Origin: Bacteroidota bacterium
GTDB taxonomy: Bacteria > Bacteroidota > Bacteroidia > Bacteroidales > WCHB1-69
Assembly (NCBI GenBank): GCA_009787115.1
Contig: WRGQ01000170.1
Location: forward strand, 21,640 to 85,639
Length of the DNA: 64,000 nt
Direction: 5' to 3'
Shown: piece by piece, positions 15,764 through 44,319 of the stretch
Layout of the letters: the number at the start of each line of letters is the position of its first letter
Numbering within the stretch: position 1 is the first letter of the stretch
Position numbers and translations under genes: made by a program
Notes under the pieces: model-generated
Seen by the model: the letters and a program-made list of their open reading frames with translations, nothing else
Database searches by the model: none
What the model was told of the DNA's origin: nothing

Positions 15764-16396
15764 ATGACCATAGTTGAAAGATACAATTTCCTGATAGATT
15801 ATTTTCAGCAAAACAACCCTAATGCTGCTTCGGAATTGCATTTTTCCAACGCTTACGAATTAATGCTTGCAGTGGTATTGTCGGCGCAATGTACCGACAA
15901 GCGTGTAAATATGGTTACTCCTGTGTTATTTACCAAATATCCAACTCCTTATGATTTAGCGAATGCTTCGTACAATGATGTTTACGAAATTATTAAATCC
16001 ATATCTTATCCTAATAATAAAACAAAGCATTTGCTCGGCTTAGCGCAAAAGTTGGTTACAGATTTTAACGGTACGGTTCCGGATAGTTTGGAGGCATTAA
16101 CCACATTGCCCGGCGTAGGCAGGAAAACCGCCAACGTAATATTGTCTGTGGTTTTCGATTTGCCCGCTATGGCAGTGGACACTCACGTTTTTCGGGTAGC
16201 GAACAGGTTAGGCATTGTGGAAAATGCAACCACACCCTTAGAGGTGGAAAAGCAGTTGGTGCAGCATTTTCCGGAACATTTGCTGGCGCGCGCCCACCAC
16301 TGGCTTATCCTGCACGGGCGCTACGTTTGTCTGGCACGCGCCCCGAAATGTTCGGAGTGCGGTATTGCAAGTGTTTGTAAAACAGCAAGATTGTAA
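15764..16396 (+). CDS. nth: endonuclease III
   Basis: HhH-GPD 'LPGVGRKTANV', catalytic 'DTHVFRV', and a 4Fe-4S cluster Cx6Cx2Cx5C ('CLARAPKCSECGIASVC'). Confidence 0.9.
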   Translation: MTIVERYNFLIDYFQQNNPNAASELHFSNAYELMLAVVLSAQCTDKRVNMVTPVLFTKYPTPYDLANASYNDVYEIIKSISYPNNKTKHLLGLAQKLVTDFNGTVPDSLEALTTLPGVGRKTANVILSVVFDLPAMAVDTHVFRVANRLGIVENATTPLEVEKQLVQHFPEHLLARAHHWLILHGRYVCLARAPKCSECGIASVCKTARL

Positions 16397-25715: not shown

Positions 25716-28217
25716 CTACCTTTTCCTTCTTGTCCACTCTTTCAAGGTCATAGCGAAGATGAATGTTATTTTATCTAAAGTAGCCGGATAGTTACCCTGT
25801 TCATCTTTAATGAGAATATAGAGATTTCGATTTTCAAAAGAATAAAAGATTGAGAAACTGAAACCGGAAATCACTTGCCGATACTCGTTTACTGTTTCGG
25901 GTACGGAAAATTGTGGCACGGTTAAGAAACCGCCTATCGGGTTGTTCTCTTTTGCAGTAACCTCTTTACAGTCATCAATAGTGATTTCGTTTCCTTGGCA
26001 GGCGCCATAAAAGTAGCCTTGCAAACCGAAGATACCCGGCATAATGATAGTATCCATATCAATAATAGCGGAGCCACTGAAATTGACCTTGCCGATATTA
26101 TTTGTCTTATTCAAAATATCGAGGGAAAAATAACTCACGTTAGTAGCGGCAGGCGCTTTTTCCTGTTGAGGACCGGGCAAACTTTTAGCCCACTGATACA
26201 GGGTTTCCAATGCCAGAGTTTGTTTCAGGTCTTTGTCATTATTCATACTTCCGTTTTGTTTCGGAGTAAAGAAAGCCATTTCAAAATCGGGAGAGTTACT
26301 GTCAATGACTATTGCCAGCAGGCGAGCCTGATGCTGACTGTGCGCCAGTTGTGACTGCACGTTCAAGTCCTGGCTTGACAAGAATAACCCTAATCCCGGG
26401 TGCGAGTGCATCCAGGCGGTATGTACGTATTCATTTCCTGTTTTTTGGCACAAATTTTCGAGTGCATAAGTAAGAGTAATACCAATTTTGGCGCCAAAAT
26501 TCAGATTATATTCGCCGTACACCGCATCATCGCCGGGCTCTACAAGTTCTTCAATACTGATGTCATACATCTGGTTTCCGCTATTGGGAACATAATCCCA
26601 ACGTCCTACTAAGAAACAACCGGTTTCGTTGGTTTTGTCGTCATATTTCAAAAATCCCGAAAAGAATTTATAAATATCCAGAATTGCTTTTCTACTGAAA
26701 TATACGCTTCTAATGCCTGTATCATTGAGCATAGAAAGCATATTCACTTCAAAATAGTCTGTACCTGCTTTTTCCCGTATGTTTCCCAAACCTGTTTTGT
26801 AGGATTTAATTTCAATAAAATCGTCATCATCTTCTATCAGCAGTCCGCCCATATCGGATTGTCTTTTTTGTTTTTCTTTTTTTTCAAGCCTTTTGTTTTT
26901 CAGGATGGTTATCACATAAAAAAGGATTCCGAAAATAAACAATAACAATAATACGCCGGTAACCGACAGCATCAAATATGGAATTTGAATTTCTGCGAGC
27001 CTTTCATAACAATACTGAATATCTTTATATTCAACAGGAATTTCATTAGCCAAATCTGCTATGGCTGCTCTGTCATTTTCGTCAGGGTATTGTTTTTGTT
27101 TTTGTGCAATAAAATTTTTACTGCTTGTATTAATTTGATCGTACCGTTTTTTAATTTTATCCAATTGGGATTTGATAGCCTCTTTTCCAATCCATCCTGT
27201 AGTAGAGTGTTGAAGACGTTCTTCAATTTCTGCTTTAATACCCCCTAAAATTTCAAAATCATCTTCCATTACGGATTCGGCAGGTAAAACAGTACCTCTG
27301 TATTCTTTTTTCCAATTTAATACCACACTATCATCTACTCTCTTCAGGGCATTAACGATTCTTCTTTTCACATTGTCAATATTTGTTAACATCTTTTCGG
27401 AAGATAAAATCAAAATATCGCAATCTTCACATTTAACGTGGGTATCCCTTTTTCTATCCCATAAATCTTTTAAATATTCTTCAATATTTAGTGTTTGGTC
27501 GTTCAATTTATTTCTCAGGTCTTTTAGATTTTCTCTATCCCTGTCGCTTAGAGTTCCTTTTTGAAGCAAACTGTTACATTGATTAATCAATGCGGCGATT
27601 CTGTCTGTAAAAGGATTGATGACTATTTTTTTAACTTCTTTAGGAGTTTCCTGTTTTTTTGGTTCGCTTTGTTTGGGTGATTTTGGAGATTCCGGTTTTA
27701 CGGTGTTACTTGTCGTAGGATTAGTGGGTTCGCTTGGAGTGGGTTGGGAATTTTCAGTTCCCTGAAATTTCACGGGCGCTATAATCATTTTGCTGATTTT
27801 TTGCCCTTCTACAACATAACAGGTAAGGTAATCCTGTGTTTTCTTTATTTGCGTAATCTCTTTGGTTCGGGTATTTTTAGAGATATGGGTAGCATTTCCG
27901 GGTACCGCGTCAAACTCTAATCCACATTTCCTTATTTCTTTACCGATATTGGAATTGTCGGCAATGGTTAAGTTGGCATAGCCAATTTGATTGTCTTTTA
28001 TTTTTACCAATGCGGGATCGTCGGTATGAAACAGAATAATTTCCTTACCGGTATTATTTTCGACCGTTATTGAATGTTTAGCTTTATCATAAGTTGCTGT
28101 TACTTCCTGTCCTGAAGTGTTGGGAAGGCTTATGGCACAAAAAACAACCATCCACAAAAATGCCCAAATCTTTACAAAGAGCGTTTGTCTATTTATCATT
28201 TTAATTCGTTTATTCAT
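25716..28217 (-). CDS. membrane-anchored JAB/MPN (JAMM) metalloisopeptidase with large periplasmic N-terminal region
   Basis: Signal peptide, a P/S/T/K-rich linker, coiled-coil segments, and a TM 'YLMLSVTGVLLLLFIFGILFYVITIL' followed by KNKRLEKKEKQKRQ. The JAMM motif is exact: E531 ('NETGCFLVGRW') plus 'HSHPGLGLFLSSQD' (HxHx7Sx2D; the H604 codon is at 26406-26408). Its ATG overlaps the upstream stop (ATGA). Confidence 0.85.
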   Translation of the reverse strand: MNKRIKMINRQTLFVKIWAFLWMVVFCAISLPNTSGQEVTATYDKAKHSITVENNTGKEIILFHTDDPALVKIKDNQIGYANLTIADNSNIGKEIRKCGLEFDAVPGNATHISKNTRTKEITQIKKTQDYLTCYVVEGQKISKMIIAPVKFQGTENSQPTPSEPTNPTTSNTVKPESPKSPKQSEPKKQETPKEVKKIVINPFTDRIAALINQCNSLLQKGTLSDRDRENLKDLRNKLNDQTLNIEEYLKDLWDRKRDTHVKCEDCDILILSSEKMLTNIDNVKRRIVNALKRVDDSVVLNWKKEYRGTVLPAESVMEDDFEILGGIKAEIEERLQHSTTGWIGKEAIKSQLDKIKKRYDQINTSSKNFIAQKQKQYPDENDRAAIADLANEIPVEYKDIQYCYERLAEIQIPYLMLSVTGVLLLLFIFGILFYVITILKNKRLEKKEKQKRQSDMGGLLIEDDDDFIEIKSYKTGLGNIREKAGTDYFEVNMLSMLNDTGIRSVYFSRKAILDIYKFFSGFLKYDDKTNETGCFLVGRWDYVPNSGNQMYDISIEELVEPGDDAVYGEYNLNFGAKIGITLTYALENLCQKTGNEYVHTAWMHSHPGLGLFLSSQDLNVQSQLAHSQHQARLLAIVIDSNSPDFEMAFFTPKQNGSMNNDKDLKQTLALETLYQWAKSLPGPQQEKAPAATNVSYFSLDILNKTNNIGKVNFSGSAIIDMDTIIMPGIFGLQGYFYGACQGNEITIDDCKEVTAKENNPIGGFLTVPQFSVPETVNEYRQVISGFSFSIFYSFENRNLYILIKDEQGNYPATLDKITFIFAMTLKEWTRRKR

Positions 28218-30627: not shown

Positions 30628-31182
30628 TTAATCCTGTTTAAATTCGACCCATCCTTGTGGTTCGCCTTGTTTCAGCACCCATTCGGCAACGTCGAGGTCT
30701 TCGGGGTAGGGGTATTCGTTTTTGGCGTGGTAGTCGTCGTAAGTAAGGTAATCAATTACGCGGTCAATATAGTCCACTAAGTGGGTATGCACGCCGCTAT
30801 CTCCGGTATTGAGGCACACGCGCCCCTTAAAGTCTCCGAAGAATCGCACGTTGGGGTGCCACACATCGGTAGTGAACGAGAACTGCGGCTGTCCGTCTGC
30901 GCTGGGGTAGTTGTTGGGCAGGGTGATACGCATTACATGTTCATAACCGAAAATAGGAAGTTTCAGTCCCTGTTCATTTTCCGGCTTAACACCGGTAATA
31001 CTTTTTACATTAAAAACGATGTCATACACAATAGGCAATCCCAATCCGTTTCTTTTGCGGATGATGTAGGAGCCCTGCGTATCGTTTTCATATCTGCGGT
31101 CTATCAGTTCCCATTCTTTAAACAAACGGGCATCTTTGCCGTTATAGGTCTTTCCTTTGTAGGTTTCTATTTCTCTTTCCAT
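30628..31182 (-). CDS. ubiquitin-conjugating-enzyme-like (E2, UBC fold) protein
   Basis: 'ITLPNNYPSADGQPQFSFTTDVWHPNVRFFGDFKGRVCLN' reproduces the UBC core (YP...P...F.t.i.HPNi...G.iCl). It has the HPN triad and catalytic Cys123 (codon 30814-30816). 184 aa. Confidence 0.85.
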   Translation of the reverse strand: MEREIETYKGKTYNGKDARLFKEWELIDRRYENDTQGSYIIRKRNGLGLPIVYDIVFNVKSITGVKPENEQGLKLPIFGYEHVMRITLPNNYPSADGQPQFSFTTDVWHPNVRFFGDFKGRVCLNTGDSGVHTHLVDYIDRVIDYLTYDDYHAKNEYPYPEDLDVAEWVLKQGEPQGWVEFKQD

Positions 31183-31511
31183 TATCCCGCAATTACTCTT
31201 TTAATAATAATTAATTTATCGCCTTCTTTAACGCCGTAGTCGAAGAGGCTTTGTTCTTCCCCGTTGTTTTTTTCTTTGAGGATTTCGCTTTTGCCGTCTT
31301 CCGACATACGTCCGAGGTAGTATTTAATGCGGTTTCCGCCGTTATCCATTTCCGGCAGCACCCATAGTTTATCGGGCATATTTCTTGCTTCCTCTCTCAC
31401 TTTTTCGAGGGTAAATTTAATGTTTTCTTTAGGATTGAGAATCCTGATGACGCAACTCTTATTTTCATAAGAGAAGATCACTTTCATACCTTGTTTTTCT
31501 TGATTTTCCAT
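31182..31511 (-). CDS. ubiquitin-like beta-grasp protein ending in a free C-terminal Gly
   Basis: The C-terminus 'SLFDYGVKEGDKLIIIKRVIAG*' aligns with ubiquitin '[22 protein letters not shown]'. 109 aa. Its TAA stop shares one nt with the E2 ATG (TAATG). Confidence 0.8.
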   Translation of the reverse strand: MENQEKQGMKVIFSYENKSCVIRILNPKENIKFTLEKVREEARNMPDKLWVLPEMDNGGNRIKYYLGRMSEDGKSEILKEKNNGEEQSLFDYGVKEGDKLIIIKRVIAG

Positions 31512-31531: not shown

Positions 31532-31572
31532 TTTAAGATTTAAGATTATTCATTAGTCATTATTCATTATTG
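31532..31572. repeat. Six phased heptamers (tttaaga x2, ttattca, ttagtca, ttattca, ttattg) between the 345-aa gene and the Ubl gene
   Basis: Read directly. On the minus strand each unit carries a TAA. The array includes the stop of the 345-aa gene. Confidence 0.8.
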
Positions 31573-32604
31573 TTGGCTTGGTGGAAGATAATCATAAATA
31601 AAATAATCATCGTAAATAACGCTTCTAACGTAATTAGTCATTTTTATTTTACGAAGTTGTTGTTTGAGTTCCATATCATACTCACTTTTTGGTATTAGAT
31701 CCTGTATTTTTTCTAAAAACGCATTTTCCATTTTATGTAAATCTTCTGTAATTTTTATTTTAATTTTTGTTACTTTATTTGCCCATTTTGTATATTCTTC
31801 AGGAGCCACTGCACCAAATTCATGTACTGTCTCATGCCACATTATCTGTGCATCCAAATTTTTATAGTCTTGGTATCTTATATAAGATTCAGCGAAGTAA
31901 GCGCCTGCTTTAAAGGCTTTTTTAACGGATTTTGCTCCCGGAGTATTGTCAATAATTGTGTTCACATATCTATTACTTATCATCATTTTCTCCCATGCCT
32001 GAATATCTCTTTCATTCGGAGCAGAAAAATTGTCATATATCGACTTTCCAGCGGAGCCGACTTTCCAAGCATAGCCACCATATTCCTTAGTGTAATCGAC
32101 AACCTTTTGTATATTGGGTGAAAGCGGAGGAAGTAAAGATTTTGCAGGTTCACTACTTGCTCCTCTCTTAGCGGAAACTCCCCCCAATATCGCAGCTCCT
32201 AAATTTTTAACTCCTTGCCAAGCGTTATACTTAACATCTTCTTCAGCCTTTTGTCTTAATTTTTTTAATTCTTCCCAAAAATCAACATCTAATTTATAAG
32301 TAAAATATTCCAGTGTTTTATTTGCAAAATTAATCCAATCTTCTCTTGCTATTCCATTGATTATGTAATTTTTAATTCCTTCCCACGAATTTCTTTCCAG
32401 GTCAATAAAAATTTTGGGTTGATTTCCATACTCCACTGCCATTGCCAATAAATAATTAATATAGGAGCCATCAATGCGAACTGCATTGCCTCTTTCCTTA
32501 TCGGCTGCATCTGCAGAACACAAGTACGTATATTCTTTGCTTGTTCTTGTTATAGGAAAGAATTTACTTCGGGCAACAGGATTGTAAGGGTTGGGGATAG
32601 CCAT
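31567..32604 (-). CDS. hypothetical cytoplasmic protein (single HExxH motif)
   Basis: 345 aa, with no signal peptide or TM helix. It contains 'WHETVHEFG' (HExxH), but I could recognise no further metalloprotease context. Confidence 0.45.
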   Translation of the reverse strand: MAIPNPYNPVARSKFFPITRTSKEYTYLCSADAADKERGNAVRIDGSYINYLLAMAVEYGNQPKIFIDLERNSWEGIKNYIINGIAREDWINFANKTLEYFTYKLDVDFWEELKKLRQKAEEDVKYNAWQGVKNLGAAILGGVSAKRGASSEPAKSLLPPLSPNIQKVVDYTKEYGGYAWKVGSAGKSIYDNFSAPNERDIQAWEKMMISNRYVNTIIDNTPGAKSVKKAFKAGAYFAESYIRYQDYKNLDAQIMWHETVHEFGAVAPEEYTKWANKVTKIKIKITEDLHKMENAFLEKIQDLIPKSEYDMELKQQLRKIKMTNYVRSVIYDDYFIYDYLPPSQQ

Positions 32605-32718
32605 TTTGTTTATTTTATATTTAGTTTTTGCATTATAATATTTTGTTTAATTTTATCGTTCTTTTTTTACGTTGCAAAAATATTTATTTTTTTTAGTGCA
32701 TTGTTTCTTTTTGTTTTT

Positions 32719-35700
32719 TTAATCTGCTTTATTGAACTCTTCCAGACTGCTTGCAATTTTAGTTTTTAGTAACTGAACAGTGTATTTATTCTTGGCATCT
32801 CTAACCATAGTAATCTTATGCCGAAGAAACAAATATTGCGACATATTATTTTTTGAATAAGGTAACGTTTTACTTCCGTCACATTGGAAGGTAATACAGG
32901 TAGTAATATATACACGACGCGGAGCGCCGGACAGACCATTTACCCAAATTGCCTGACTCCTAAAAAAAACATTATCTTCTAATGATTCATATTGCTGTTT
33001 AGTATAATAGTCATTATTATTTTCTGTATAAGATACTTTAGTTTCTTCGTTGCTAACATAAGTAATAAGGTTATCTACTTTTATGCTGTAGGCATAATAA
33101 CGTAAATCAATACGATAGCGAAGATAAAACACGCTACTCATGTCGGGCGATGGCCGATTATTTTTTTCAAACTTCACATCAAAGTCTGCACTGTAACTCT
33201 CAAGTGTAATATGTGGAATATGTGATAGACACATTGAATACTCTTCTAACATAAATTTATAATTACCCAATTTTTCTTTCTTCAGTTTTTCCGTAACTGA
33301 TATAGGGTTCTTAGATGTGTCTATCTTGTTAAAGTTTATGTTACACTCGTTGTTGCTACAGAATATTGAGTTTTTGATAAAACTTTCCATTGCCGTATCG
33401 GTAAGCCATTCGGCTATTATAGTGAAGACAATAGCTGCAAGTGATACTATAATTCCCAGCACTCCAAAAGCAGCGCCTTGTGCAAATACAAGGATAGCAG
33501 AAGTAGCGTACGCTACCACTGACAAACCATAAAATGCCGCTGCCGCATTATTATTTTTCATGAGCCTACCGTATGCCTTAATCCAGGAATCATATATGTC
33601 AACACCCGTTCCAATAACCGAAAATACCTTAAAAGCAACATCAAATTTTTTTAGAAGAAGAGTATTTTTCTTAATATTTTTTTTTGCAAATCCTTCTAAG
33701 AACGTGGTTCCCAGTGCACCTACGTTTGCCCCGAATTTTATTTTCTCTTTTATATCTTTTTCCTGTATAGAAGAAAATAAAGAATATATATATATTCCCG
33801 ACATAACACTCTGAAAACCTTTGTGGTTTGAGATATATTCTATGAACCTGTTGCTTTTAATACTGGCGGCGCTCCTGCTGAAAAAAGAGTCTTCTTTGTT
33901 TACTATTTTCTTAATGGGTTCTACTATAGAATTCTTTGCTAACTTAATCTGTTCTTGTATTTTTGATTTTATGCCAGTACCTTTGTTTCCGACTTGCTTT
34001 TCCAGTGCATCTGTTACTTCCTTGTCTCTTTTGCACGCACTCTCGTTTCCCACTTTTGAATTATTCTCCAATATTTCGTTGTCAAAAATATCATTCCGAA
34101 AAGTAACATACGTTGAGTGTAAAAAATCAAAAAGTGTATCAATGTTGGCAGAACTCTTTGTTCCTTCCGAATAATCAGAGAATAATGCTATCATATCAAG
34201 CTCTTTATACAGCAGTTTTCCCACTTGATTTCTCTTTTTAGATATGTTTTTCAAGTATTCTTCGCCAGGGTCTTTGTACGCTTTTTGAATCAGTGTTCCA
34301 AAGCAATAGATATCTTTCTTTTCGCCGTCTATATGTTGGTCTTTGGTGTGAGGCAATATGGATAAAGTACAGCACAAATCCATTACTAATTTTTTTACTT
34401 CTAAGAGCATTTTATTAAAAGCCTCCTCTTGATTAGAATCAGTAGGAGGTTTTAATTGCGCAAAAAAGCCACAATACTTTTCGAAAGAATCACTTTTTAA
34501 ATTTATTACCAGGTTTTCTCTGTATTTGTCTATGTGTTTTCTTATGGACTTTCTCCGCTCAACTGCTAAAATCTGTTCAAGAAACTCTTTTTTTGTTACT
34601 TTTCTTGCCTTATCTAAATCGTCTCTATATCTTTCTCTTATCTGTTCATCTTTTATATCTTCAACATCATTATCATTAACATAGAGGCGATAATACATCA
34701 TCATACCCAGATTATGTATGGCAGCATAATGTTCCAAATCGGAAGAATTGCCCAAGAGGGTTGAATCTGAAATTATAATTTCATTTTTTTCGAGAATTTT
34801 AGTCTCAAACATCTTCTTTTTTATCGTTGAGAAACTTACTCCTGTTCTTATAGAACGAATAAAGGCTTCATGATCAAGATGTTTATCTTGCAGATACCAT
34901 TCCATTTGTTTGGCTACGCCAACAGGGTCGTCCACAACAAAGAACAGATCTTTTTTTCCTTCCGGCTTGTCATAGTTGTATTTTGCTTCTTTTACAAGGT
35001 TGTTTAAACGAGATTCGCTATATTTGCCAATTCCTGATATCTGATGGTAAACAGCCATATCCTTTACACTAATTGCCCGAGATTCAGAATCAAATGATTG
35101 TAAATCAAGTTTGTGCATAAAATCATCTCTTTTTTCCTTAAGAACACCTATCGCCTCTGGGGTGAGTTGCACTTCGCTATAAAACAAGGCTATCTTATCT
35201 GTTTCGGATACGATGAGATAGCCACTACCTGCTTTAACTTTTCTACCGGAAGTTTTATTTGTTTCTTTAAACGTAATATTTTCTTCATCATATTTCAATT
35301 CATATATATCTCTGGCTGTTTCGCTATATACATAAAGCCAACCAAATCTCAAAGGCATCGGATAGAGGTGGTCGGGGGCGGTTACCGTAGAATTATCGTT
35401 AACTTTCTCCTCGTCCTTTTTTAATGTATATTTACTGTTGTTTTTGTTCGGATCTGTTATAAAACAATGGATTCCATATCTGAAAGGATATACTCTAATT
35501 CCACTCTCAATGGTGAGTAGATTTTTCTTCTCAATAAAATCTTCTACAAAAGGATCGCTTTGTTTAATTTCAATATGCAACTCTTTATCAATCATTTTGG
35601 TGGTAATCTCAAATTCTTCTCTAGAATAAGATTTATTATCCTCCACTGTTAGAGTAGTGTTACCCACTTTTTCATTTTCTTTATCCAAAATGGTAATATC

Positions 35701-35952
35701 AAGATTTTTGCCAATAGCTTCTTTAGGATATAATATGCCCAGTTCTATCTTGACCTTGCTTCCCTGTCTTGCACTTTCAATGGGAATGTATTTTTGATCT
35801 TTGGTAACAATTACCCACCTTGAAATTTCAATTTTAGGGGTCGGTTTCTTTGGATCTCCTGCTTTCTTCGCATCATTCTTAGAACTTTCTTTTCTTTGAT
35901 CTTTATTGGAAGTTTCCCCAGTAGTTTTTTTTTCTCCTTGTTTATTTCTCAT
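32719..35952 (-). CDS. large T6SS effector candidate: shared N-terminal domain plus C-terminal hydrophobic helices
   Basis: 1077 aa. Residues about 35-150 are homologous to the N-terminus of the neighbouring M23 effector. Hydrophobic stretch 'FYGLSVVAYATSAILVFAQGAAFGVLGIIVSLAAIVFTIIAEWL' at about nt 33410-33555. It lies downstream of vgrG and the PAAR-like gene. Confidence 0.55.
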   Translation of the reverse strand: MRNKQGEKKTTGETSNKDQRKESSKNDAKKAGDPKKPTPKIEISRWVIVTKDQKYIPIESARQGSKVKIELGILYPKEAIGKNLDITILDKENEKVGNTTLTVEDNKSYSREEFEITTKMIDKELHIEIKQSDPFVEDFIEKKNLLTIESGIRVYPFRYGIHCFITDPNKNNSKYTLKKDEEKVNDNSTVTAPDHLYPMPLRFGWLYVYSETARDIYELKYDEENITFKETNKTSGRKVKAGSGYLIVSETDKIALFYSEVQLTPEAIGVLKEKRDDFMHKLDLQSFDSESRAISVKDMAVYHQISGIGKYSESRLNNLVKEAKYNYDKPEGKKDLFFVVDDPVGVAKQMEWYLQDKHLDHEAFIRSIRTGVSFSTIKKKMFETKILEKNEIIISDSTLLGNSSDLEHYAAIHNLGMMMYYRLYVNDNDVEDIKDEQIRERYRDDLDKARKVTKKEFLEQILAVERRKSIRKHIDKYRENLVINLKSDSFEKYCGFFAQLKPPTDSNQEEAFNKMLLEVKKLVMDLCCTLSILPHTKDQHIDGEKKDIYCFGTLIQKAYKDPGEEYLKNISKKRNQVGKLLYKELDMIALFSDYSEGTKSSANIDTLFDFLHSTYVTFRNDIFDNEILENNSKVGNESACKRDKEVTDALEKQVGNKGTGIKSKIQEQIKLAKNSIVEPIKKIVNKEDSFFSRSAASIKSNRFIEYISNHKGFQSVMSGIYIYSLFSSIQEKDIKEKIKFGANVGALGTTFLEGFAKKNIKKNTLLLKKFDVAFKVFSVIGTGVDIYDSWIKAYGRLMKNNNAAAAFYGLSVVAYATSAILVFAQGAAFGVLGIIVSLAAIVFTIIAEWLTDTAMESFIKNSIFCSNNECNINFNKIDTSKNPISVTEKLKKEKLGNYKFMLEEYSMCLSHIPHITLESYSADFDVKFEKNNRPSPDMSSVFYLRYRIDLRYYAYSIKVDNLITYVSNEETKVSYTENNNDYYTKQQYESLEDNVFFRSQAIWVNGLSGAPRRVYITTCITFQCDGSKTLPYSKNNMSQYLFLRHKITMVRDAKNKYTVQLLKTKIASSLEEFNKAD

Positions 35953-36077
35953 AATCTTTATTTTTTGCTTATTATTATTTGTTTGTTATTAATTAGGCAC
36001 AAGTTACGATTACATCTCCACTTGCAACACAATGGGGGAACTCTATTTTTGAGTTTATTTCATTATGGTGGTGCTTG

Positions 36078-38738
36078 TTACCGATGTTGTGCCGGTGGTG
36101 GCGTTGCTGATGGTGTAGGTGTTGCTGCGGCTGCTTTTTTTGAATTATCATTCAGTCGTTTCATATTATCTTCTACTTCCTTCTTTTGTTTTTCTAATAT
36201 ATCAGGTCTCTCTTTTTCAACCCGATCATTAAGCACAAGGTCATCAGTTGCTTCGTTCATATCATAGTCTGATGAATCATACTTTATTATTTCACTGTCC
36301 TGTTTGAATTTAAGAATTGCTTTCCGGGTATCACTTGTATTATTTCCCCAATCTCCGTCTATTAACTTACCTATATTATATCCTAAAAATTTTAGTTGAG
36401 CCTGGATTCTTCTTTTTCTTCTTCCTTCGTCATTCATGTGTGGACATATCAATTCATGAACCGCCCAACATGCAGTTACGTAAGTACTATTATTAAAGTT
36501 ACATCTACCCTTGGGACCGTCAGCGGTAGGATTATTACTATCCTGACTATTAATTGCACAATAACATGGGAACATTAGTGGAAAGTCATTAAGTGGTATT
36601 AGATTCAAATTCTCTTCGGGTAAACCGTTTAGATTTTCTCTAAGCCCAACTCTAAAGGGGGCTTGTTCATTTCCTGCTTGTATATTTAGATGCACATGAC
36701 CGGGCCATTTTGAAGGATCATCAAGATTTCCGGTACGTCCGGCATGTGCTATAATTTGTCCTGCCATAACATATTGTCCGTTTTTTGCCACAAAATCATT
36801 TAAATGTAAATAACTGATTGTGTGACGTTCATATAGACTTTTACTTGCAACGAATGTCTTAAATGTTAGCACACTAAACCTTCCTGCTTTATTTTGGTCC
36901 CCCTTATTCCAATTCGTATTACCGACTGTTCCTCCATGTATTGCATAGACATTGGCTCCTTTTGTAGCATGGATATCAATACCTGCATGTCCGGTTGTTC
37001 TCCACAAATGTGCGTTGCCTGGCGCATTTCGCTTCTCTTTAATTGTTTTCGGGGCCTTAGAATTCGTGGAATAGTCCGGATTCGGCACATCCACATAGAT
37101 ATATTTCCTGTTTTCTGTTTTTCCGTAACCTTTTCCTCCATAATCGTCACCGGTGACCTTGTTGTTTCCTCCAAGATCAAAATATGTTGTAGGAATATGC
37201 ATATTCAAATTTTTATACCTGTCATCCTGTATATGGGTTTGAGTACCATTATCCTCTATCTCATCCCACACCGGTTGGCACCATTTCATAGCAAAGAGTG
37301 TAAAGTGAAATCCATGTACCTCGCAAAATGGAGAAAAGAGTTTAGTGTCGAATTTTTCAAATTTTCCGGTATCTTCTTTAATGACAAACTTTTCAGAAAC
37401 TTTAAGTTCACTCTTTTCATCTCCATGTTGAATCTCCCATCCGAAAGGCTTTCCCCAATCGGTTTCTTGCTTAGCCCCTTTTGGCCAAACAATTTTAAAT
37501 GGTGTATCCTGATAGGTAATGTGCATTTTATTGTCTTTCATATGGTTGTGTCTAATCACAGCAGTAGTATTTCCTGTAATTCTTTCCAATACCACAGGGA
37601 AATCAAAAAATCCTATTTCAATATCTGCTTTTTCATTATCTAAAAAGGGTTTCGGAATAAACAGGGTGAGCCACCCCTCCTCATCAGTAGTCACATGTGA
37701 GTTATAGTGCAACACCATTTTCCTCAGCAACGGCAAATATTTTTTCTCGTCTTCATTCTCCTTTATTTCAATGTTGCTACCCTCTGGCGCTCTCTCCTTC
37801 CAATATTCCTTAAAAAGTTTTTTAAATTCCGAGTCATATTTATATTCTTTGTCTTTTTCTTTTTTCTTTTTATAGGAAACAGCGGGAAGTTGATCCATTT
37901 TGATTTCTTTGTTTCTTACACCTTCTTTACAAAATGAGCCAAGAACAGCCATTGAAGATTGAATCAGTTCATTTCTGTTACGATAATTGTATCGTCTCCC
38001 ACCATTATTAAATTTATATTTTGCATCGCTATCTATCTTTTCTGCTGCCTTTCTCTTCTTTTGTTCTTCCTTTGTCTCCTCTCTCTCCTTTGGTTTCTTC
38101 GGTATCTGTACACTTAAAATATAGTTTTCGGCATTTCTGTCAAATTCTTCGGTTATTTTTTTATTTCCTGCGGTAAAGACTATTTTTTTAACCATTGCAT
38201 ATTTAAGGGGTTGCCGTGAGCGGGCATCAATAACCTTTATATATATTTTGGCAAATTCAAACATCATCACCTGAAGTCTGGCATCTCCGATAAACTCTTT
38301 TTTAAAAGGTTCTTTTTGTTCTACTTTAACATATAGATCTTTAAAAAGCCATTCGGGTTTTATTTCAATTTCCTCAGAATAGGAAGTTTTGGCATTACTG
38401 TCTACTGTCAGTTTTGTTTTAGTTACTTCTTTTTCCTTTTCGCCATCTATAATTATAATATCAATGACATTTCCTGCTACTACGTCACTATTTTTTATAG
38501 ATAACTCTATTTTAACCTTAGTTTCTATTTTAGCTTCAGAAATCTCTTTGTATGTATCATTATTATTTTTGTCTTTGGTAAGGATTACCCACTTTGAGGT
38601 AAGGATTTCGGGTTTTTTAGATTCTTTTTCCTTCTCGGTTTGTTCTTGTTGACTATCTTTTTTAGAAGATTCGGCTCTCACTTGAGAATTACTGATAGTT
38701 CCTTTAGTCCCTGGCGTTGTGGATTGTTTGTCTGCCAT
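36078..38738 (-). CDS. T6SS effector candidate: N-terminal shared domain + M23 peptidase + peptidoglycan-binding domain
   Basis: M23 HxxxD 'HAGIDIH' (about nt 36975-36992) and HxH 'GHVHLNIQ' (about 36684-36706). PG_binding_1-like 'RIQAQLKFLGYNIGKLIDGDWGNNTSDTRKAILKFKQ'. No signal peptide. It follows the PAAR-like gene. Confidence 0.8.
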   Translation of the reverse strand: MADKQSTTPGTKGTISNSQVRAESSKKDSQQEQTEKEKESKKPEILTSKWVILTKDKNNNDTYKEISEAKIETKVKIELSIKNSDVVAGNVIDIIIIDGEKEKEVTKTKLTVDSNAKTSYSEEIEIKPEWLFKDLYVKVEQKEPFKKEFIGDARLQVMMFEFAKIYIKVIDARSRQPLKYAMVKKIVFTAGNKKITEEFDRNAENYILSVQIPKKPKEREETKEEQKKRKAAEKIDSDAKYKFNNGGRRYNYRNRNELIQSSMAVLGSFCKEGVRNKEIKMDQLPAVSYKKKKEKDKEYKYDSEFKKLFKEYWKERAPEGSNIEIKENEDEKKYLPLLRKMVLHYNSHVTTDEEGWLTLFIPKPFLDNEKADIEIGFFDFPVVLERITGNTTAVIRHNHMKDNKMHITYQDTPFKIVWPKGAKQETDWGKPFGWEIQHGDEKSELKVSEKFVIKEDTGKFEKFDTKLFSPFCEVHGFHFTLFAMKWCQPVWDEIEDNGTQTHIQDDRYKNLNMHIPTTYFDLGGNNKVTGDDYGGKGYGKTENRKYIYVDVPNPDYSTNSKAPKTIKEKRNAPGNAHLWRTTGHAGIDIHATKGANVYAIHGGTVGNTNWNKGDQNKAGRFSVLTFKTFVASKSLYERHTISYLHLNDFVAKNGQYVMAGQIIAHAGRTGNLDDPSKWPGHVHLNIQAGNEQAPFRVGLRENLNGLPEENLNLIPLNDFPLMFPCYCAINSQDSNNPTADGPKGRCNFNNSTYVTACWAVHELICPHMNDEGRRKRRIQAQLKFLGYNIGKLIDGDWGNNTSDTRKAILKFKQDSEIIKYDSSDYDMNEATDDLVLNDRVEKERPDILEKQKKEVEDNMKRLNDNSKKAAAATPTPSATPPPAQHR

Positions 38739-38796: not shown

Positions 38797-39183
38797 TTAT
38801 GTTTTTACCGTAACATTACCTGCAAATGTAACTTCAATCACACCGCCCCATATACACATACATTTACAGTTGTCAACCAAAGCGGGCATATTTTTCACCA
38901 ACACGGTAGGTTTTCCGGGTATCCAGGGTGCTACTGTATTGGGGATGCAGGGCATTGGGGTTAATACGCCGCTGGCAGAGGCGGTGGCTGAGGCTACTGT
39001 TGGATTTGCCAAAGACTGGCACATTCCGAAGGTAGCAATATTCACCATAGGTTTAAAATCCATAATATTTGCCATAGGTACCCCCGCGCAATTGATCATT
39101 TTATCGGGCAATACCGTGAAAGATCCGGGTGCTATCCCGAAAGTGCATTTCAATAAAGCGCCGTTAACTACAAAAAATCCCAT
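38797..39183 (-). CDS. DUF4280 / PAAR-like spike-tip protein
   Basis: 128 aa. 'VVNGALLKCTFGIAPGSFTVLP', 'NIATFGMCQSLANP', 'PCIPNTVAPWIPGKPTVLVKNMPALVDNCKCMCIWGGVIEV' follow the DUF4280 pattern. It lies directly downstream of vgrG. Confidence 0.7.
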   Translation of the reverse strand: MGFFVVNGALLKCTFGIAPGSFTVLPDKMINCAGVPMANIMDFKPMVNIATFGMCQSLANPTVASATASASGVLTPMPCIPNTVAPWIPGKPTVLVKNMPALVDNCKCMCIWGGVIEVTFAGNVTVKT

Positions 39184-39244: not shown

Positions 39245-41248
39245 CTATCCTATTTGAATCATAGCGCCCTTAATGGTAGTGCTGGCGCCGCCGTCAAATT
39301 CTCCTGTGGCAGATCCTGCTACTTTTATAGACGCCCCTGCATTCACTTCGGTATTGACATCACTTTCCACAGTAACGTTCATCCCTTTAATTGTGCAATC
39401 GCCGGTTGCGGTAATTTCCGTAGCGCCCTGCACAGCAACTGTTTTATCTCCATCCACTCCAATTTCCATATCTCCACTAACATTCATACTGGTATTTCCG
39501 TCAGAGGTTGTAATTATATCTGCTTTTGCCGATACTCTTGTATCCTCATGACTTAATAGTATAATATTTTCATCCGCCTCCCCGTCAATATCTGTAGCTG
39601 CTTTCAGAATAATACTGTTTCCGGCTTCCAAATAAATATCTTCATCTGCATACAAACGGATATTACCTGCGGACCTTAGCTGTATCAATTTGTCATCCGT
39701 ATCAAACATGATTTGATATGTAAAATCATCTTCTGTACCGTCGGTAATCAAAATTCTTCCACCATCGTCTTTGTCGTGAAATTCGATGGAGTGTCCGTTT
39801 TTAGTACGAATACCTTTAAATTCGTTTTTCTCATCTTCAGCCCAGGTGTTCCATGGTTTTTGGTTTCCATGATAGAGCGTACCTATTACGTAAGGTTTTT
39901 CGGCATTACCGTTTTCAAACCCAATCAACACTTCCTCTTCAATTTCGGGGATGAAGTAGAACCCTTTGTCAGTTCCGCCGTGTGGTTGGGCAATGCGGAT
40001 CCATGGGGTCATCCAGTTTTCATCCTGTTGTTTTTGCCAGAGGAACTGTACGCGCACGCGCCCCAGTTTTTCGGGGTCTTTGTTGTCCATTACCACTGCG
40101 CGTTGCGGTTCGGCTTTGGGGTAGTAGTCGCCGTAAATAAAAGGCGGGTATTCGCATTCGGCAGGGATTGCCGTAAATTCGTTTTCGTAGTTGCCCATAT
40201 TATCCACATAATGAGAGATGCGGCAAATTAACAGTTCATCGTGAGGACATGTACCTGTCTTATCATTATTTTCATAATATTCTTTCATTTTAATCACGCT
40301 GCCTATTTTCAGGTCGGCGCGGTTGCTGCTTCCGTAACATACCATCATCTGTGTTTTTCTACCCAGCCCCTGTACTTTGGCAGAGATCTCAAGTTCATCA
40401 AAATCCTCTTCCGGATTGGAAGAGATTCTGTCTTGAAAGGTTTCTTTAGTATATAGTGCTTTAGATTCGTCGTAAGCAATGTCGATCATATTGTGCATGG
40501 CAGGATCGGTAACATCCGCTCCTTTTTTTGTCGGCTCATCATATTTTAAATAATCGTGGTAGGCATGTGTAAATTTCAGATGCTCCATATTTAACCGGTA
40601 CTGGTAATTAAGTATATCTGATCCCACGCTCAACTCTAAGGATTCTGTTTTTTCAATCTTTCCAAACACCAATTTCTCATTATCATAATAGAGCCATTCA
40701 CCGTACCGGCAAGCCAACCGGCTCAAAAAGCCGTAATTGGTTTCATTATATTGTACAGTATATGGAATCTCTTTTTCAAATCGGGGATTATTACTTACGG
40801 GGATAGTTTCGTTGTCATAAGGTTTCAATGTTTCTTCGACAATATTCTTCAACGTTGTCTTTTCATAAGAGGCGCAATGAGGAGAGTCGTACAGCAGATA
40901 ATCGGGGCTGTAGGCAGTCACTTCTATTACAACGCCCGACCGGAAACTTTTGCGTATAAGATTGGCGTTAAAAATGATTCCGGTAAATATCATCGAATCG
41001 TGTTGTTCTTTTACCTCTTCATCATATCGGGAAGTAGTAATAGAAAATTCTACTTTTTTCCCCAACAGCTTTTTCGAAAGAGAGAAATGAATATCATCTG
41101 CGTCTCTATTCAGATTTACTTTTCGCATCTGAAAGCGAAATTCGTTAGGTTTGTGCAATTCCTGCACTAAACTGACTTCGGAAAAATCGTATTCATTATA
41201 CATTTCTCCGTCAATAGTAATGGTTACTTTTTCAGTTAGAATAGACAT
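39245..41248 (-). CDS. tssI: T6SS spike protein VgrG
   Basis: gp27-like N-terminal half. gp5 OB-fold 'VMDNKDPEKLGRVRVQFLWQ...WIRIAQPHGGTDKGFYFIPEIEEEVLIGFENGNAEKPYVIGTLYHG'. C-terminal beta-helix-like repeats. 667 aa. Confidence 0.9.
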   Translation of the reverse strand: MSILTEKVTITIDGEMYNEYDFSEVSLVQELHKPNEFRFQMRKVNLNRDADDIHFSLSKKLLGKKVEFSITTSRYDEEVKEQHDSMIFTGIIFNANLIRKSFRSGVVIEVTAYSPDYLLYDSPHCASYEKTTLKNIVEETLKPYDNETIPVSNNPRFEKEIPYTVQYNETNYGFLSRLACRYGEWLYYDNEKLVFGKIEKTESLELSVGSDILNYQYRLNMEHLKFTHAYHDYLKYDEPTKKGADVTDPAMHNMIDIAYDESKALYTKETFQDRISSNPEEDFDELEISAKVQGLGRKTQMMVCYGSSNRADLKIGSVIKMKEYYENNDKTGTCPHDELLICRISHYVDNMGNYENEFTAIPAECEYPPFIYGDYYPKAEPQRAVVMDNKDPEKLGRVRVQFLWQKQQDENWMTPWIRIAQPHGGTDKGFYFIPEIEEEVLIGFENGNAEKPYVIGTLYHGNQKPWNTWAEDEKNEFKGIRTKNGHSIEFHDKDDGGRILITDGTEDDFTYQIMFDTDDKLIQLRSAGNIRLYADEDIYLEAGNSIILKAATDIDGEADENIILLSHEDTRVSAKADIITTSDGNTSMNVSGDMEIGVDGDKTVAVQGATEITATGDCTIKGMNVTVESDVNTEVNAGASIKVAGSATGEFDGGASTTIKGAMIQIG

Positions 41249-41297: not shown

Positions 41298-41801
41298 CTA
41301 TTTTGTGTTTTCAGTGTTTGCTTTTTCCGGAATATCGGGTCTTTGTCCTGTTGATGGTTTTTCCCCCGAAGAATTATTAATTGTTTTTTCTTTGACGTCA
41401 AAGAGTACTGCATTTGCCTCTTCGCCGAAAATAATTCTGGCAGGGAATATGGATAATCGCGTGTACATCTGGTCGGAGGAGTGCATATTGAAGTACTCGT
41501 ATAAACTTACGCAAAAAGCGTCTTCAAATCTAATGTATCTATCTGAGGAACTTCCTTTGCTCACCACTTTCATATAAATCCAGCCACTCTTTTTTTCGTT
41601 GGGTTTTTGCATCCAGTCGTGAAAGAACATATCCGCGTCATCGGGAGCTACCACTGTAAATGTGATTACGCCGGGTTTGGGTTTTTCTGCCGGCTGTGCG
41701 GTATCCCGTTGCATCTCCTGCGTTAAAGTGTAACTACATTCCATAACAAGGTATGGGTCGTCGTTTTTGTTATCAATAAATAAATATGCTTCGTGTGCCA
41801 T
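41298..41801 (-). CDS. second Hcp/TssD-like protein with C-terminal extension
   Basis: 167 aa. The block order (…ECSYTLTQEM…GVITFTVVAP…FHDWM…GWIYMKV…IRFEDAFCV…LSIFPARII) parallels the adjacent Hcp (…SYSYSFNQSI…GLIKVTVKAQ…LLGWM…GAIIIMKA…ITFKKAYCV…IIISCQEIKI). It has an extra polar tail of about 30 aa. Confidence 0.5.
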   Translation of the reverse strand: MAHEAYLFIDNKNDDPYLVMECSYTLTQEMQRDTAQPAEKPKPGVITFTVVAPDDADMFFHDWMQKPNEKKSGWIYMKVVSKGSSSDRYIRFEDAFCVSLYEYFNMHSSDQMYTRLSIFPARIIFGEEANAVLFDVKEKTINNSSGEKPSTGQRPDIPEKANTENTK

Positions 41802-41842
41802 ATTTTTGATTTTAAAGGGTTAATTTTTTTAATTAAAATGGG

Positions 41843-41900
41843 TGGAAATGTGAGATAACCCTTTCGGTCACGCGTCGCGTGTCACTATCTCACATTTCCA
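41843..41900 (-). promoter_or_regulatory. 15-bp perfect inverted repeat (28-nt loop) in the hcp-hcp2 intergenic region
   Basis: 'tggaaatgtgagata' (41843-41857) pairs with 'tatctcacatttcca' (41886-41900). The loop contains the nested palindrome 'cacgcgtcgcgtg'. It lies 22 nt after the hcp stop on the transcribed strand. Confidence 0.45.
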
Positions 41901-41921
41901 TCCGGCTTTAGTTAATGTAGA

Positions 41922-42332
41922 TTACTTCCAAGCATTTTTATAATCTACGTTTCCGATTTTGATTTCCTGACAGGAGATGATAATGGTTTCAGTGTGAGCA
42001 ATGTCCACATTTTTGCTTGCATCAGCCCAGTCTTCTTTGTAGTCCACGCAATAGGCTTTTTTAAACGTAATTTGTTTCATCTCATTCTTGATGTCATTCG
42101 CTTTCATAATAATGATAGCGCCGTCCTTTTTCATGTCAGGGTCTAACATCCAGCCCAGAAGTTCGATGTTGCCATCGTTTTGAGCTTTAACGGTTACTTT
42201 GATAAGTCCGCCTCTAGGAATTCCGGCGGGTTGATTCTCTTTATCAATAGATTGATTAAAAGAATAACTGTAGGATTGTACTTCACGTTTTGCGAAGCCA
42301 TCCACTGCTAATAGTACAGGTGTTTCTGCCAT
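41922..42332 (-). CDS. tssD: T6SS tube protein Hcp (TssD, Bacteroidota type)
   Basis: 136 aa. It sits directly after tssBC and before vgrG. Its size and pattern are as in subtype-iii TssD. Confidence 0.75.
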   Translation of the reverse strand: MAETPVLLAVDGFAKREVQSYSYSFNQSIDKENQPAGIPRGGLIKVTVKAQNDGNIELLGWMLDPDMKKDGAIIIMKANDIKNEMKQITFKKAYCVDYKEDWADASKNVDIAHTETIIISCQEIKIGNVDYKNAWK

Positions 42333-42382: not shown

Positions 42383-43759
42383 TTAATCAGTTGATTCACA
42401 TTTTTTGCTGTTTTTATCAGCGGATAATTTGATGGTAAAGTTCTTTGCTGCAAAGAACGGTACGATGTCAATATCAATTTTGATCTCTTTGGTTACCGGA
42501 TCCTGGAAAGGATTTTCAATGGTATAGTCTTTAAACAATTTGCCTGCTCCCTTGTATTGGTTGAGGAAAGCCTGAATGGTAGATCTTAATTGTTTAGGAG
42601 AGTTGAAGGGGTCCCAGTTTTCGAGGGCAACTTTGTGTACGTAGTGCATCAGGTTCTTTTTCACCCAGTCGAAAACGCGCACGATAGGATACTCTTGCAT
42701 AGCGGTATTGCTGCCGGTATAGAGGTTGGTATTGTTGTAAGCCATTACGCGACCTTCGGAGATTACCATAGGTATTACGTGATTGTCCCACAAGCCTGTA
42801 ATCTCTTCTTTCATCATATCTAAGTGAACGCCTTTAATTTCGCTCAGGGTACCATATTTTTCACCTGCGGTACCTTGTGCCATCGGGGTATTTCCATTTA
42901 ACAATTTTCCTGCCAGCGCTCCTGCGGGTGGAATATAGAGCGGGTTCATTTCGCCGGCAATAGATTCGGTGGGACGTCCTACTAACCAGTTAGCGGTAAC
43001 AATCACATTTTGCAACTCTTTATCTGCATCTTTGTATTCTTCGGTCTGTTCTTTCAGGATGTCATACTCTCTGCAATCTTCGGAGTCGGTAACCACCATA
43101 AATTTGTATTCGTAAGCCATTTTAGCCCACATATCACGCACTTGTTTATCTTTAAATACGTGTCCGGGTAATGCCAGCAAACTGTAGTTGTCTTTCAAAC
43201 TCAAACGTCCGAAAGCATTGTACAGCAAACTCTTTATTTCTTTGAAACTTTCGGAGTCGCTGTTTTGGAGTTCGTCGGTTTCGCCGCTACCGGAGTATTT
43301 TTCTACATTTATCAAACGGAGATTGGTAATTTTATCCATTCCGGAGTTTTTGAAGAAAGAGTCTAACGTACGGTACGAAGTTTCCAACTTTTTAATTTTA
43401 TAAGAAGCAATCTGGAGATTGTCTTTCAGGAGATTTTGATATTTCTCGCTTTTTTGGATGCAAAGGGCCACATATTCAGAAGCGGAGGTTTTGTCTTCGC
43501 TTAGAATTTCCAACCACGTAGTAATATCTTTTGCCAATCTTTCGCGTTTGCTTTTAAACTGGTTTTCGTTTAAGAACATCATTTTGGTAGCCTTGCTTGC
43601 CGGGTCGAGGTCGGCGGCGTCGGGCATAATAGAAGCAAATGTTCTGAATCCGCCAAATTTGGCTAATAGGTCAGCTACCGATTTACCGGGTTGCGCTTGC
43701 TGTTTAACCTCTTCCTGGGTTTGTACAGTTTCTTGTTGTTGTAATTTAGGTTCAGCCAT
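42383..43759 (-). CDS. tssC: T6SS contractile sheath large subunit TssC
   Basis: 458 aa. It follows tssB by 18 nt. The C-terminal region 'YPIVRVFDWVKKNLMHYVHKVALENWDPFNSPKQLRSTIQAFLNQYKG...IDIDIVPFFAAKNFTIKL' is sheath-like. Confidence 0.85.
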   Translation of the reverse strand: MAEPKLQQQETVQTQEEVKQQAQPGKSVADLLAKFGGFRTFASIMPDAADLDPASKATKMMFLNENQFKSKRERLAKDITTWLEILSEDKTSASEYVALCIQKSEKYQNLLKDNLQIASYKIKKLETSYRTLDSFFKNSGMDKITNLRLINVEKYSGSGETDELQNSDSESFKEIKSLLYNAFGRLSLKDNYSLLALPGHVFKDKQVRDMWAKMAYEYKFMVVTDSEDCREYDILKEQTEEYKDADKELQNVIVTANWLVGRPTESIAGEMNPLYIPPAGALAGKLLNGNTPMAQGTAGEKYGTLSEIKGVHLDMMKEEITGLWDNHVIPMVISEGRVMAYNNTNLYTGSNTAMQEYPIVRVFDWVKKNLMHYVHKVALENWDPFNSPKQLRSTIQAFLNQYKGAGKLFKDYTIENPFQDPVTKEIKIDIDIVPFFAAKNFTIKLSADKNSKKCESTD

Positions 43760-43777: not shown

Positions 43778-44275
43778 TTATTTAACTTGATTTAATTCTT
43801 CGAGAAGAGATTCCAAAAGCGCTTTCAAATCGCTACGACCTTCGGGGTCTTTTAAGATGTCGCGTAAACGGGCGTTTTTCTCAATCGTTTTTTGCACATT
43901 TTCACAGTTTTCTTTTTTGGTGCGCAAATCACTTAAAAACGGGCTGTTGGTAACAAGATTACCTTTACCGTTGTTGATTTCAAAATCTTTCATTTCTTTA
44001 AAATTCAAGACCTCTTTTTTGGTCTCACCACCGTCGGCAGTAAAATCAATTTCAACTTTGGGTTTAAAGTAGTCGAAAGTGTCTTTGAGGTTTTTAGGAT
44101 ACACACCTCTTTTTTGTCCGTCTTCTTCTACTTCTTTCATTGCCAGTCCACGGTTGTCGAAAGTAACTTCCGACGTAAACTGGTCCACATACATAGTTTT
44201 GTTCTGAGATAATCCCTCAATACCTGCTGAGGAATCCTCATCTTCCAATCTGGATAGAAAATTTTCTTTACTCAT
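43778..44275 (-). CDS. tssB: T6SS contractile sheath small subunit TssB
   Basis: About 165 aa from 'MSKENFLSRLED'. 'LNFKEMKDFEINN...SPFLSDLRTKKE' resembles the VipA/TssB C-terminal pattern. The track's longer start (44332) would overlap clpV. Confidence 0.75.
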   Translation of the reverse strand: MSKENFLSRLEDEDSSAGIEGLSQNKTMYVDQFTSEVTFDNRGLAMKEVEEDGQKRGVYPKNLKDTFDYFKPKVEIDFTADGGETKKEVLNFKEMKDFEINNGKGNLVTNSPFLSDLRTKKENCENVQKTIEKNARLRDILKDPEGRSDLKALLESLLEELNQVK

Positions 44276-44319
44276 ATTATTTTGTTTTTTAAAAAGGTTA
44301 ATAATTTTTTTTATAATGT

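Follow-up and report, generated by a model that had tools for sequence, protein, structure and literature searches.

The DNA analysed here is a 64,000-nucleotide stretch of a Bacteroidota bacterium (assembly GCA_009787115.1, contig WRGQ01000170.1, positions 21,640 to 85,639), called the window below and numbered from its first letter. A Bacteroidota-type type VI secretion system (T6SS) cluster occupies its minus strand at roughly 16.4-46.8 kb, and all window genes named here lie on that strand. Two large putative effectors, effector 1 (e1) and effector 2 (e2), are encoded directly downstream of the genes for the VgrG spike and a DUF4280 PAAR-like protein, where an initial annotation had already placed both open reading frames (ORFs). 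Each begins with a polar leader followed by the same N-terminal domain, which is the subject of this report. The VgrG spike, the presumed carrier, is encoded at 39245-41248 and matches Phage_GPD and Phage_base_V, and the DUF4280 PAAR-like spike tip (38797-39183; PF14107, E 5.5e-33) lies directly upstream of e1.

The e1 gene (36078-38738) encodes 886 amino acids (aa), arranged as leader, N-terminal domain, middle region, M23 metallopeptidase and C-terminal tail. The polar leader (residues 1-40, 38619-38738) is rich in S, K, Q, T and E and is predicted to be disordered from its composition and from a predicted local distance difference test (pLDDT) score below 50 at residues 30-38. The shared domain follows at residues 41-160 (38259-38618). 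The Peptidase_M23 domain spans residues 583-690 (36669-36992; E 5e-12), and its motifs are intact, with HAGID at 584 (HxxxD) and HVH at 681 (HxH). The e2 gene (32719-35952) encodes a putative pore-forming toxin of the VasX/BTH_I2691 type with 1077 aa. Its K-rich, polar leader (residues 1-34, 35851-35952), recognised by composition and by low pLDDT at the first modelled residues, precedes the second copy of the domain at residues 35-149 (35506-35850). A VasX_N region with a MIX-like core found by motif search comes next (residues 149-286, 35095-35508; VasX_N E 1.9e-13), and the C-terminal part matches NF041559 (BTH_I2691_fam; E 2.7e-13, residues 748-866) and contains a hydrophobic segment at 816-850.

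The two N-terminal regions are homologous. BLASTP aligns residues 11-150 of e1 with residues 10-140 of e2 at 41% identity and 58% positives (composition-corrected E 1e-17), and a Smith-Waterman alignment of the domain alone scores 182, against 38 +/- 7 in 2000 composition-preserving shuffles (z = 20). The family profile places the domain at residues 39-160 of e1 (E 7.7e-43) and 35-149 of e2 (E 1.4e-38), giving a length of about 115-120 aa, and tblastn over the window finds exactly these two copies. The leaders resemble each other weakly (p about 0.016). Since the next best segment outside the shared region reaches only E 0.42, the remainders of the two proteins, one with an M23 body and the other with a VasX-like body, are unrelated. 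The initial annotation had described both the homologous domain of about 120 aa behind a K/S-rich disordered leader and the unrelated remainders, and these descriptions hold.

AlphaFold2 models of both copies, built from a four-sequence alignment, are all-beta with the same strand order, comprising 9-10 strands and one short helix (e1: pLDDT 86.5, predicted template modelling score (pTM) 0.78; e2: pLDDT 80.7, pTM 0.71); the modelled part of the leader is disordered. The two-sheet, all-beta arrangement of about 100 aa that characterises the immunoglobulin (Ig)-like beta-sandwich fold class is present in the models, as expected from the beta-sandwich that had been guessed earlier. Neither copy nor any of the 11 family members described below matches Pfam or NCBIfam at E up to 1, and no PDB chain matches the domain in sequence, in keeping with the earlier remark that it is not a recognised domain. 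Only marginal Pfam matches appear, to other sandwich domains (MG2, MucBP_2 and Invasin_D3). The Foldseek neighbours are generic Ig-like or sandwich folds, all at E 1e-3 or weaker and with TM 0.6 or less, namely antibody Ig V domains, RhoGDI, the Wzt C-terminal domain, macroglobulin (MG) domains and the uncharacterised 6oe6_B. The best TM-score of the e1 model is to 9jg8_C (TMq 0.60, E 4e-3), a chain of unconfirmed identity in what we take to be the BtpeA-BtaeB-BtapC cargo complex on the Bacteroides fragilis VgrG spike. This likeness is treated as generic sandwich similarity, as 9jg8 falls outside the top 50 of the e2 model and there is no sequence match. Residues W13, K39, K96 and L118 (alignment A2 numbering) are invariant across the domain clades. 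On these models, the best account of the domain is an Ig-like beta-sandwich module, about 115 aa long and not filed before, always with a short, polar disordered leader ahead of it.

When the two window copies were made into a HMMER profile and 1.84 billion representative proteins were searched with it, 13 matches resulted, of which 11 are true members and two are repeat proteins that were discarded; a local hidden Markov model (HMM) scan of the recovered loci supplements these representatives. In each of the 11 members, the domain follows a leader at the extreme N-terminus, starting at residue 17-46 (17-49 with the local additions), and at least five toxin types stand behind it. M23 bodies orthologous to that of e1 are present in P0003, P0004, P0005 and P0012, and an M23 fragment in P0008. 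VasX-like bodies are carried by e2 and by its homologue P0006, which has the same architecture, and an HExxH metzincin-like body by P0007 and the fragment P0011. P0013 is a complete protein of 215 aa and 24 kDa, the C-terminal part of which (about 90 aa) has no assigned family. The metzincin-like body also exists without the domain, in L012:3346-5385, which forms a natural presence/absence pair with P0007 (L006:1009-2790).

In the locus L012, a protein of 628 aa (14244-16130) begins with an N/Q-rich leader, after which come the domain twice in tandem (residues 49-164 and, directly following, 177-282), a PG_binding_1 domain (293-351) and an unassigned C-terminal domain, which by motif reading (HMGKALD ... 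WLHLD) looks M15/LAS-like. Two phage-lysozyme effectors, L012:5998-7170 and L009:3465-4562, carry a divergent version of the domain (domain E 0.002 in the HMM scan; hhalign probability 69%, E 4.5e-5). Two further candidates were rejected: the beta-rich N-terminal region of the lysozyme effector L005:8485-9816 as a hidden copy (hhalign probability 0.3%), and L006:3585-3962 (125 aa) as a stand-alone domain (hhalign negative against both profiles). The latter has a short leader and, by eye, an alternating beta-like pattern, and a phospholipase C effector that has no leader and an ankyrin-repeat gene lie immediately downstream of it.

The family is very rare and belongs to a narrow uncultured lineage, and all its members come from metagenome or read-archive assemblies. 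A domain-only query of a 5.8-billion-protein collection finds no match, and two profile queries of the same collection return only P0011 and P0013, nothing beyond the representative search. Two pattern scans, with patterns taken from both clades, find no relative in 185,579 species-representative genomes, a result limited to those patterns that leaves absence unproven.

Seven independent loci with members were recovered, all of which are T6SS effector blocks, and in six of them VgrG and/or DUF4280 is encoded no more than five genes upstream. The order in the window is VgrG, DUF4280, e1 and e2. In L008, Hcp, VgrG, a 70-aa ORF and DUF4280 are followed by P0006 (VasX-like), P0005 (M23) and an SH3_3 protein; thus the VasX-like and M23 pair, both with the domain, recurs in swapped order. 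L005 contains VgrG, DUF4280, a lysozyme effector without the domain, P0003 and an SH3_3 protein. In L012, Hcp, VgrG, DUF4280 and a metzincin-like effector without the domain are followed, with intervening genes, by a lysozyme effector and P0004 and later by the tandem-copy protein, so that P0004 and the tandem-copy protein share one effector array with VgrG-DUF4280. L006/L007 opens with a VgrG fragment, DUF4280 and P0007, while L001/L002 carries a Tle1-like gene, DUF2931, DUF4280, P0013 and a lipoprotein-like gene. The seventh locus, L009-L011, is an effector array containing P0012, with neither VgrG nor DUF4280 within 8 kb upstream. In four of the seven loci, the gene that comes first behind DUF4280 encodes the domain (e1, P0006, P0007 and P0013), and e2, P0005 and P0003 are each encoded by the second. 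The initial annotation had looked to a profile search for diverse toxins near vgrG and had counted mainly non-T6SS contexts as contrary evidence; the toxin types and spike genes recovered here agree with the former, and every recovered locus is a T6SS effector block.

The domain tree contains two clades that match the locus lineages and not the toxin type, a long-leader clade (window, L005, L008 and L012) and a short-leader clade (L001, L006 and L009). Within a clade, domains on unlike toxins are closer to one another than to domains on the same toxin in the other clade. The domain of P0012, an M23 protein, is 48-49% identical to those of P0007 and P0013 and 35-39% identical to the other M23-type domains. 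The e1 copy shares 53% identity with the first copy in the tandem-copy protein and 53-55% with copies at other loci, above its 41% identity with e2. DUF4280 splits into the same two lineages: the window protein shares 77-88% identity with the copies of L005, L008 and L012, and 54-55% with the copies of L001 and L006. As read from these sequences, a tree that follows lineage is what one expects of an N-terminal module that remains with the producer machinery as toxins are swapped.

Regardless of whether they have the domain, 14 putative effectors of these loci open with a leader that is polar, of low complexity and 15-160 aa long; only the Tle1-like and phospholipase C effectors have no polar start. 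The N-termini of the short-leader clade (P0007, P0011, P0012, P0013 and L009:3465-4562) have in common the start M-x-x-x-G-T/S-G-A-x, as in MGKTGTGAGNV, MASPTGTGAINA and MGKTGTGAASV, which is kept even where the downstream domain differs. This start may be an N-terminal signal.

We propose, with a probability of roughly one in two, that the leader and the module form a cis-encoded handle that loads large cargo onto the VgrG-DUF4280 spike in the Bacteroidota-type T6SSiii. The leader and the Ig-like module would dock large effectors (24-130 kDa) on the VgrG trimer capped by DUF4280, one polypeptide thereby doing the job that falls to separate adaptors elsewhere, the DUF4123 protein Tap in Proteobacteria and Ate3/BtapC in gut Bacteroides. 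Because VgrG is trimeric, several effector types could ride on one spike, for example the cell-wall peptidase of the M23 type together with the VasX-like pore former; the recurrence of this pair in L008 would fit the co-delivery of a wall hydrolase and a pore former. We infer that the module binds VgrG and/or DUF4280, that export requires it and that e1 and e2 are co-loaded. Spike loading is supported by the size of the effectors with the domain, mostly 65-130 kDa (P0013, with 24 kDa, is the exception), by the position of their genes directly after DUF4280, and by the result of family scans in which no DUF4123, DUF1795 or DUF2169 adaptor was found in the T6SS cluster of the window. Effectors above 40 kDa are typically spike-loaded (PMC13035841), and Bacteroidota offer precedents both for common N-terminal loading modules and for DUF4280-dependent spike complexes (PMC13035841, PMC13402684).

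Several observations weigh against such a role. P0012 is encoded apart from both spike genes, and e2 has its own MIX-like element just behind the domain. DUF4280 (77-88%) is far more conserved than the domain (35-55%), and a comparison of the domain with VgrG C-termini and DUF4280 across the loci gives no informative co-variation. L012:3346-5385, a distant metzincin-like homologue of the P0007 toxin, is encoded right behind DUF4280; it is collinear with the P0007 body (E 2e-7), and all that precedes this body is a disordered leader about 100 aa long. At least one toxin family can thus do without the domain, and the actual signal may be the leader. The Tle1-like, phospholipase C and L005 lysozyme effectors of these loci also lack the domain. 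The two tandem copies within one protein suit a docking tag no better than a generic Ig-like module for spacing or binding, and every identifiable toxin domain is envelope-directed. The initial annotation had compared the arrangement with delivery markers, and the part of this comparison that stands is the modular N-terminal unit on different toxins. The domain is neither a general marker, with 11 representatives among 1.84 billion proteins, nor obligatory.

The envelope-directed toxins would also fit a role on the target side, where the Ig-like module would bind peptidoglycan, a glycan or the membrane and position or retain the toxin in the target periplasm. The assignable toxins (M23, PG_binding_1, lysozyme and the VasX-like pore former) all act on the envelope, the structural neighbours are generic binding sandwiches, among them the Wzt carbohydrate-binding domain, RhoGDI and macroglobulin MG domains, and the marginal Pfam matches to MG2, MucBP_2 and Invasin_D3 point the same way. 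Tandem duplication is common among binding modules as well. However, every member has the domain strictly at the extreme N-terminus, preceded by a leader, and it is this end of polymorphic toxins that normally serves trafficking; the tree of the domain follows the producer lineage and not toxin or target chemistry, and a pore former and a metzincin-like protein carry it besides the wall hydrolases. We regard a target-side role as unlikely.

Another possibility assigns the export or loading signal to the disordered leader and leaves the Ig-like domain to act as a linker, as a solubility module or as a spacer that holds the toxin body off the spike or tube. Extracellular contractile injection systems are known to have disordered packaging signals at the N-terminus. 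The polar leader of the 14 putative effectors occurs regardless of the domain, the M-x-x-x-G-T/S-G-A start is kept on the L009 lysozyme effector despite its divergent domain, and L012:3346-5385, directly after DUF4280, has the leader only. Nevertheless, the leaders are poorly conserved, as the value of p about 0.016 between e1 and e2 indicates, whereas the domain keeps W13, K39, K96 and L118 across the clades, and a plain spacer would not be expected to remain homologous over five toxin types. A division of labour of this kind appears distinctly doubtful.

Binding to Hcp, comparable to the N-terminal loading region of the B. fragilis GA3 V1 effectors in Hcp2-Hcp3 heterohexamers, is improbable. 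In favour of it, two Hcp paralogues are encoded just upstream of VgrG, and Hcp2-Hcp3 in gut Bacteroidales recognises divergent effectors by a fold that they have in common at the N-terminus (PMC13035841). The Hcp lumen could also accommodate a 12-kDa sandwich, and P0013 is only 24 kDa. However, e1 (about 100 kDa) and e2 (about 120 kDa) are too large for that lumen, effectors above 40 kDa being typically loaded on the spike (PMC13035841), and the genes with the domain cluster with DUF4280 and not with hcp. The GA3 V1 effectors (Bte1, Bfe1 and LysM) belong, like those of the window, to a Bacteroidota T6SSiii. Their N-terminal region consists of about 70 aa on an antiparallel beta-hairpin pair that inserts into Hcp3, with less than 17% identity between members, and is carried by small effectors inside Hcp (PMC13035841). 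In contrast, the module described here is a sequence-conserved sandwich of about 115 aa on proteins of mostly 65-130 kDa encoded after DUF4280, and e1 and e2, with 886 and 1077 aa, are too long for cargo of that kind. Finally, an artefact of K-, E- and I-rich composition, or a recent local duplication of adjacent genes without functional meaning, is practically refuted by the shuffles (z = 20), the composition-corrected E value of 1e-17, the members fused to different toxins in at least seven independent loci, and the old divergence of the two copies (41% identity), the e1 copy being closer to those of other loci (53-55%).

The comparison with known loading modules concerns MIX above all. The MIX consensus, which is said to have been set out by Salomon et al. 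in 2014, reportedly has hRxGhhYhh at its centre. Judged by this consensus, e2 contains a MIX-like core inside VasX_N, with PLRFGWLYVY at residues 200-209 and FYSEVQLT at 257-264, and P0006 contains one at residues 215-287 (PLRSGYVYVY, then FYSEVQLT), directly behind the new domain; a motif search finds no MIX-like motif in e1. The core would be a MIX-type element in a T6SSiii effector. Because it is retained in e2 and P0006, the module would have been added to an older delivery element rather than replacing MIX. Unlike MIX, the shared domain is modelled as all-beta and lacks this motif, and no DUF4123 gene was found in the cluster. By motif and by modelled fold, it is not MIX, an alpha/beta domain that is bound by DUF4123 adaptors and holds VasX-family toxins in Proteobacteria, the VasX/BTH_I2691 family carrying it at the N-terminus (PMC12909789). 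The likeness lies in an N-terminal module on otherwise unrelated T6SS effectors beside vgrG, where MIX is needed for loading (PMC12909789, PMC10673891).

Like FIX, RIX and WHIX, the domain is a conserved N-terminal region on polymorphic toxins, the likeness to RIX and WHIX being one of description only. FIX is a marker for T6SS substrates (PMC6688995), and WHIX has been reported to be sufficient for secretion (PMC12135965). The present module differs from these in phylum and T6SS subtype, in its far narrower spread of 11 representatives, and in having no Pfam or NCBIfam match. Furthermore, DUF2345, LysM, PG_binding_1 and FIX-like domains are small non-toxic domains between VgrG and toxin that aid VgrG-effector recognition (PMC10673891). 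These may stand alone or be fused, whereas only the fused form was found here, and none of their profiles matches.

In the case of B. fragilis, the assemblies Bte3-Ate3-Pte3(DUF4280)-VgrG and BtpeA-BtaeB-BtapC-VgrG resemble the window in having a DUF4280-capped VgrG with large effectors. Bte3 has N-terminal beta-sandwich domains, and the DUF4280-capped spikes of gut Bacteroides need a separate adaptor, Ate3 or BtapC, for one or two effectors (PMC13402684). In a passage of the same paper that cites Li et al. 2025, one adaptor is stated to let two synergistic effectors be secreted together (PMC13402684). The fold of Ate3/BtapC is a beta-barrel that is open and has 11 strands, and the TMq of 0.60 between the e1 model and 9jg8_C does not recur with the e2 model. 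It is plausible to group the module functionally with MIX, FIX, RIX, WHIX and the Bacteroidales loading region, as a new and narrowly distributed family.

The remaining T6SS genes of the window comprise ClpV (44320-46797), a TssB-sized gene without a family match (43778-44332), TssC (42383-43759) and two Hcp (TssD) paralogues at 41298-42332 (41298-41801 and 41922-42332; PF17642, E 5e-21 and 9.7e-32), which are 167 and 136 aa in size, respectively, and lie just upstream of VgrG. At its C-terminus, the paralogue at 41298-41801 extends past the TssD domain by about 40 aa of polar character. Paralogous Hcps form cargo-specific heterohexamers in gut Bacteroidales (PMC13035841). The best solved relative of the window VgrG is that of B. 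fragilis (9jg8_G, E 6.9e-52; 8gra, E 9e-51). TssK-like and TssE genes belong to the same cluster, further downstream of the effector ORFs. At the distal edge of the cluster, a second small M23 peptidase of 215 aa (16426-17073; E 4.9e-30) may be a wall-remodelling accessory for assembly and not an effector. Directly after e2, a protein of 345 aa (31567-32604) has no family match and no homologue in the related loci, and no signal peptide or membrane segment is visible on inspection of its sequence; it could serve as an adaptor or in immunity, or be one more effector.

Immunity candidates are found more readily at the other loci. At four of these, the M23 effector precedes a secreted SH3_3 protein about 290 aa long (L005:12315-13151, L008:14168-15037, L009:10095-10976 and L012:13359-14222, with several paralogues in L012), and these are candidate immunity proteins; the lipoprotein-like gene after P0013 is a candidate immunity gene. 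No homologue of the SH3_3 protein was found across the 64 kb of the window, although the catalytic motifs of e1 are intact, and the gap between e1 and e2 is only 125 bp (window 32605-36077). Either the immunity gene of e1 is located elsewhere, or the producer protects itself in another way.

Between the effector block and the baseplate genes, the T6SS cluster also contains a ubiquitin-like (Ubl) conjugation set, in a region with genes at 20813-22045, 22061-24472, 25716-28217, 30628-31182 and 31182-31511. The set includes a protein of 109 aa ending in RVIAG (Ala-Gly), an E2-like protein with a UQ_con match below the Pfam threshold (E 1.7e-5) and a ThiF E1 (E 1e-52). Two cluster proteins of about 800 aa have weak below-threshold matches to JAB (E 0.0095) and RING (E 0.006), and the sequence of the JAB-matching protein includes a hydrophobic, membrane-spanning stretch. 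The 109-aa and E2-like proteins are 93-95% identical to their counterparts in L005 (14723-15683) and 78-81% identical to those in L009 (14429-15354), compared with 54% for VgrG. No description of a Ubl system linked to a T6SS turned up in the papers searched. Gene adjacency, the 78-95% conservation of Ubl and E2 across loci and the invariant lysines suggest the purely speculative and very improbable idea that covalent Ubl tagging of the effector N-terminus couples or licenses effectors for spike loading; the candidate sites would be the Lys-rich leader and the invariant lysines of the Ig-like domain.

The choice of cargo by the T6SSiii of Bacteroidota has come into view through the Hcp2-Hcp3 loading regions, the Ate3/BtapC adaptors and the DUF4280 tips described in 2025-2026. 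The value of the present family is limited by its tiny size, its metagenome-only origin and the lack of an experimental host. Nonetheless, it would provide a search handle for new toxins in uncultured Bacteroidota and already flags the uncharacterised C-termini of P0013 and L012:14244-16130, among others, and it is a possible portable tag for cargo engineering. If the proposed cis-encoded loading is true, a compact fused module that marks spike cargo would represent an adaptor-free route in these bacteria.

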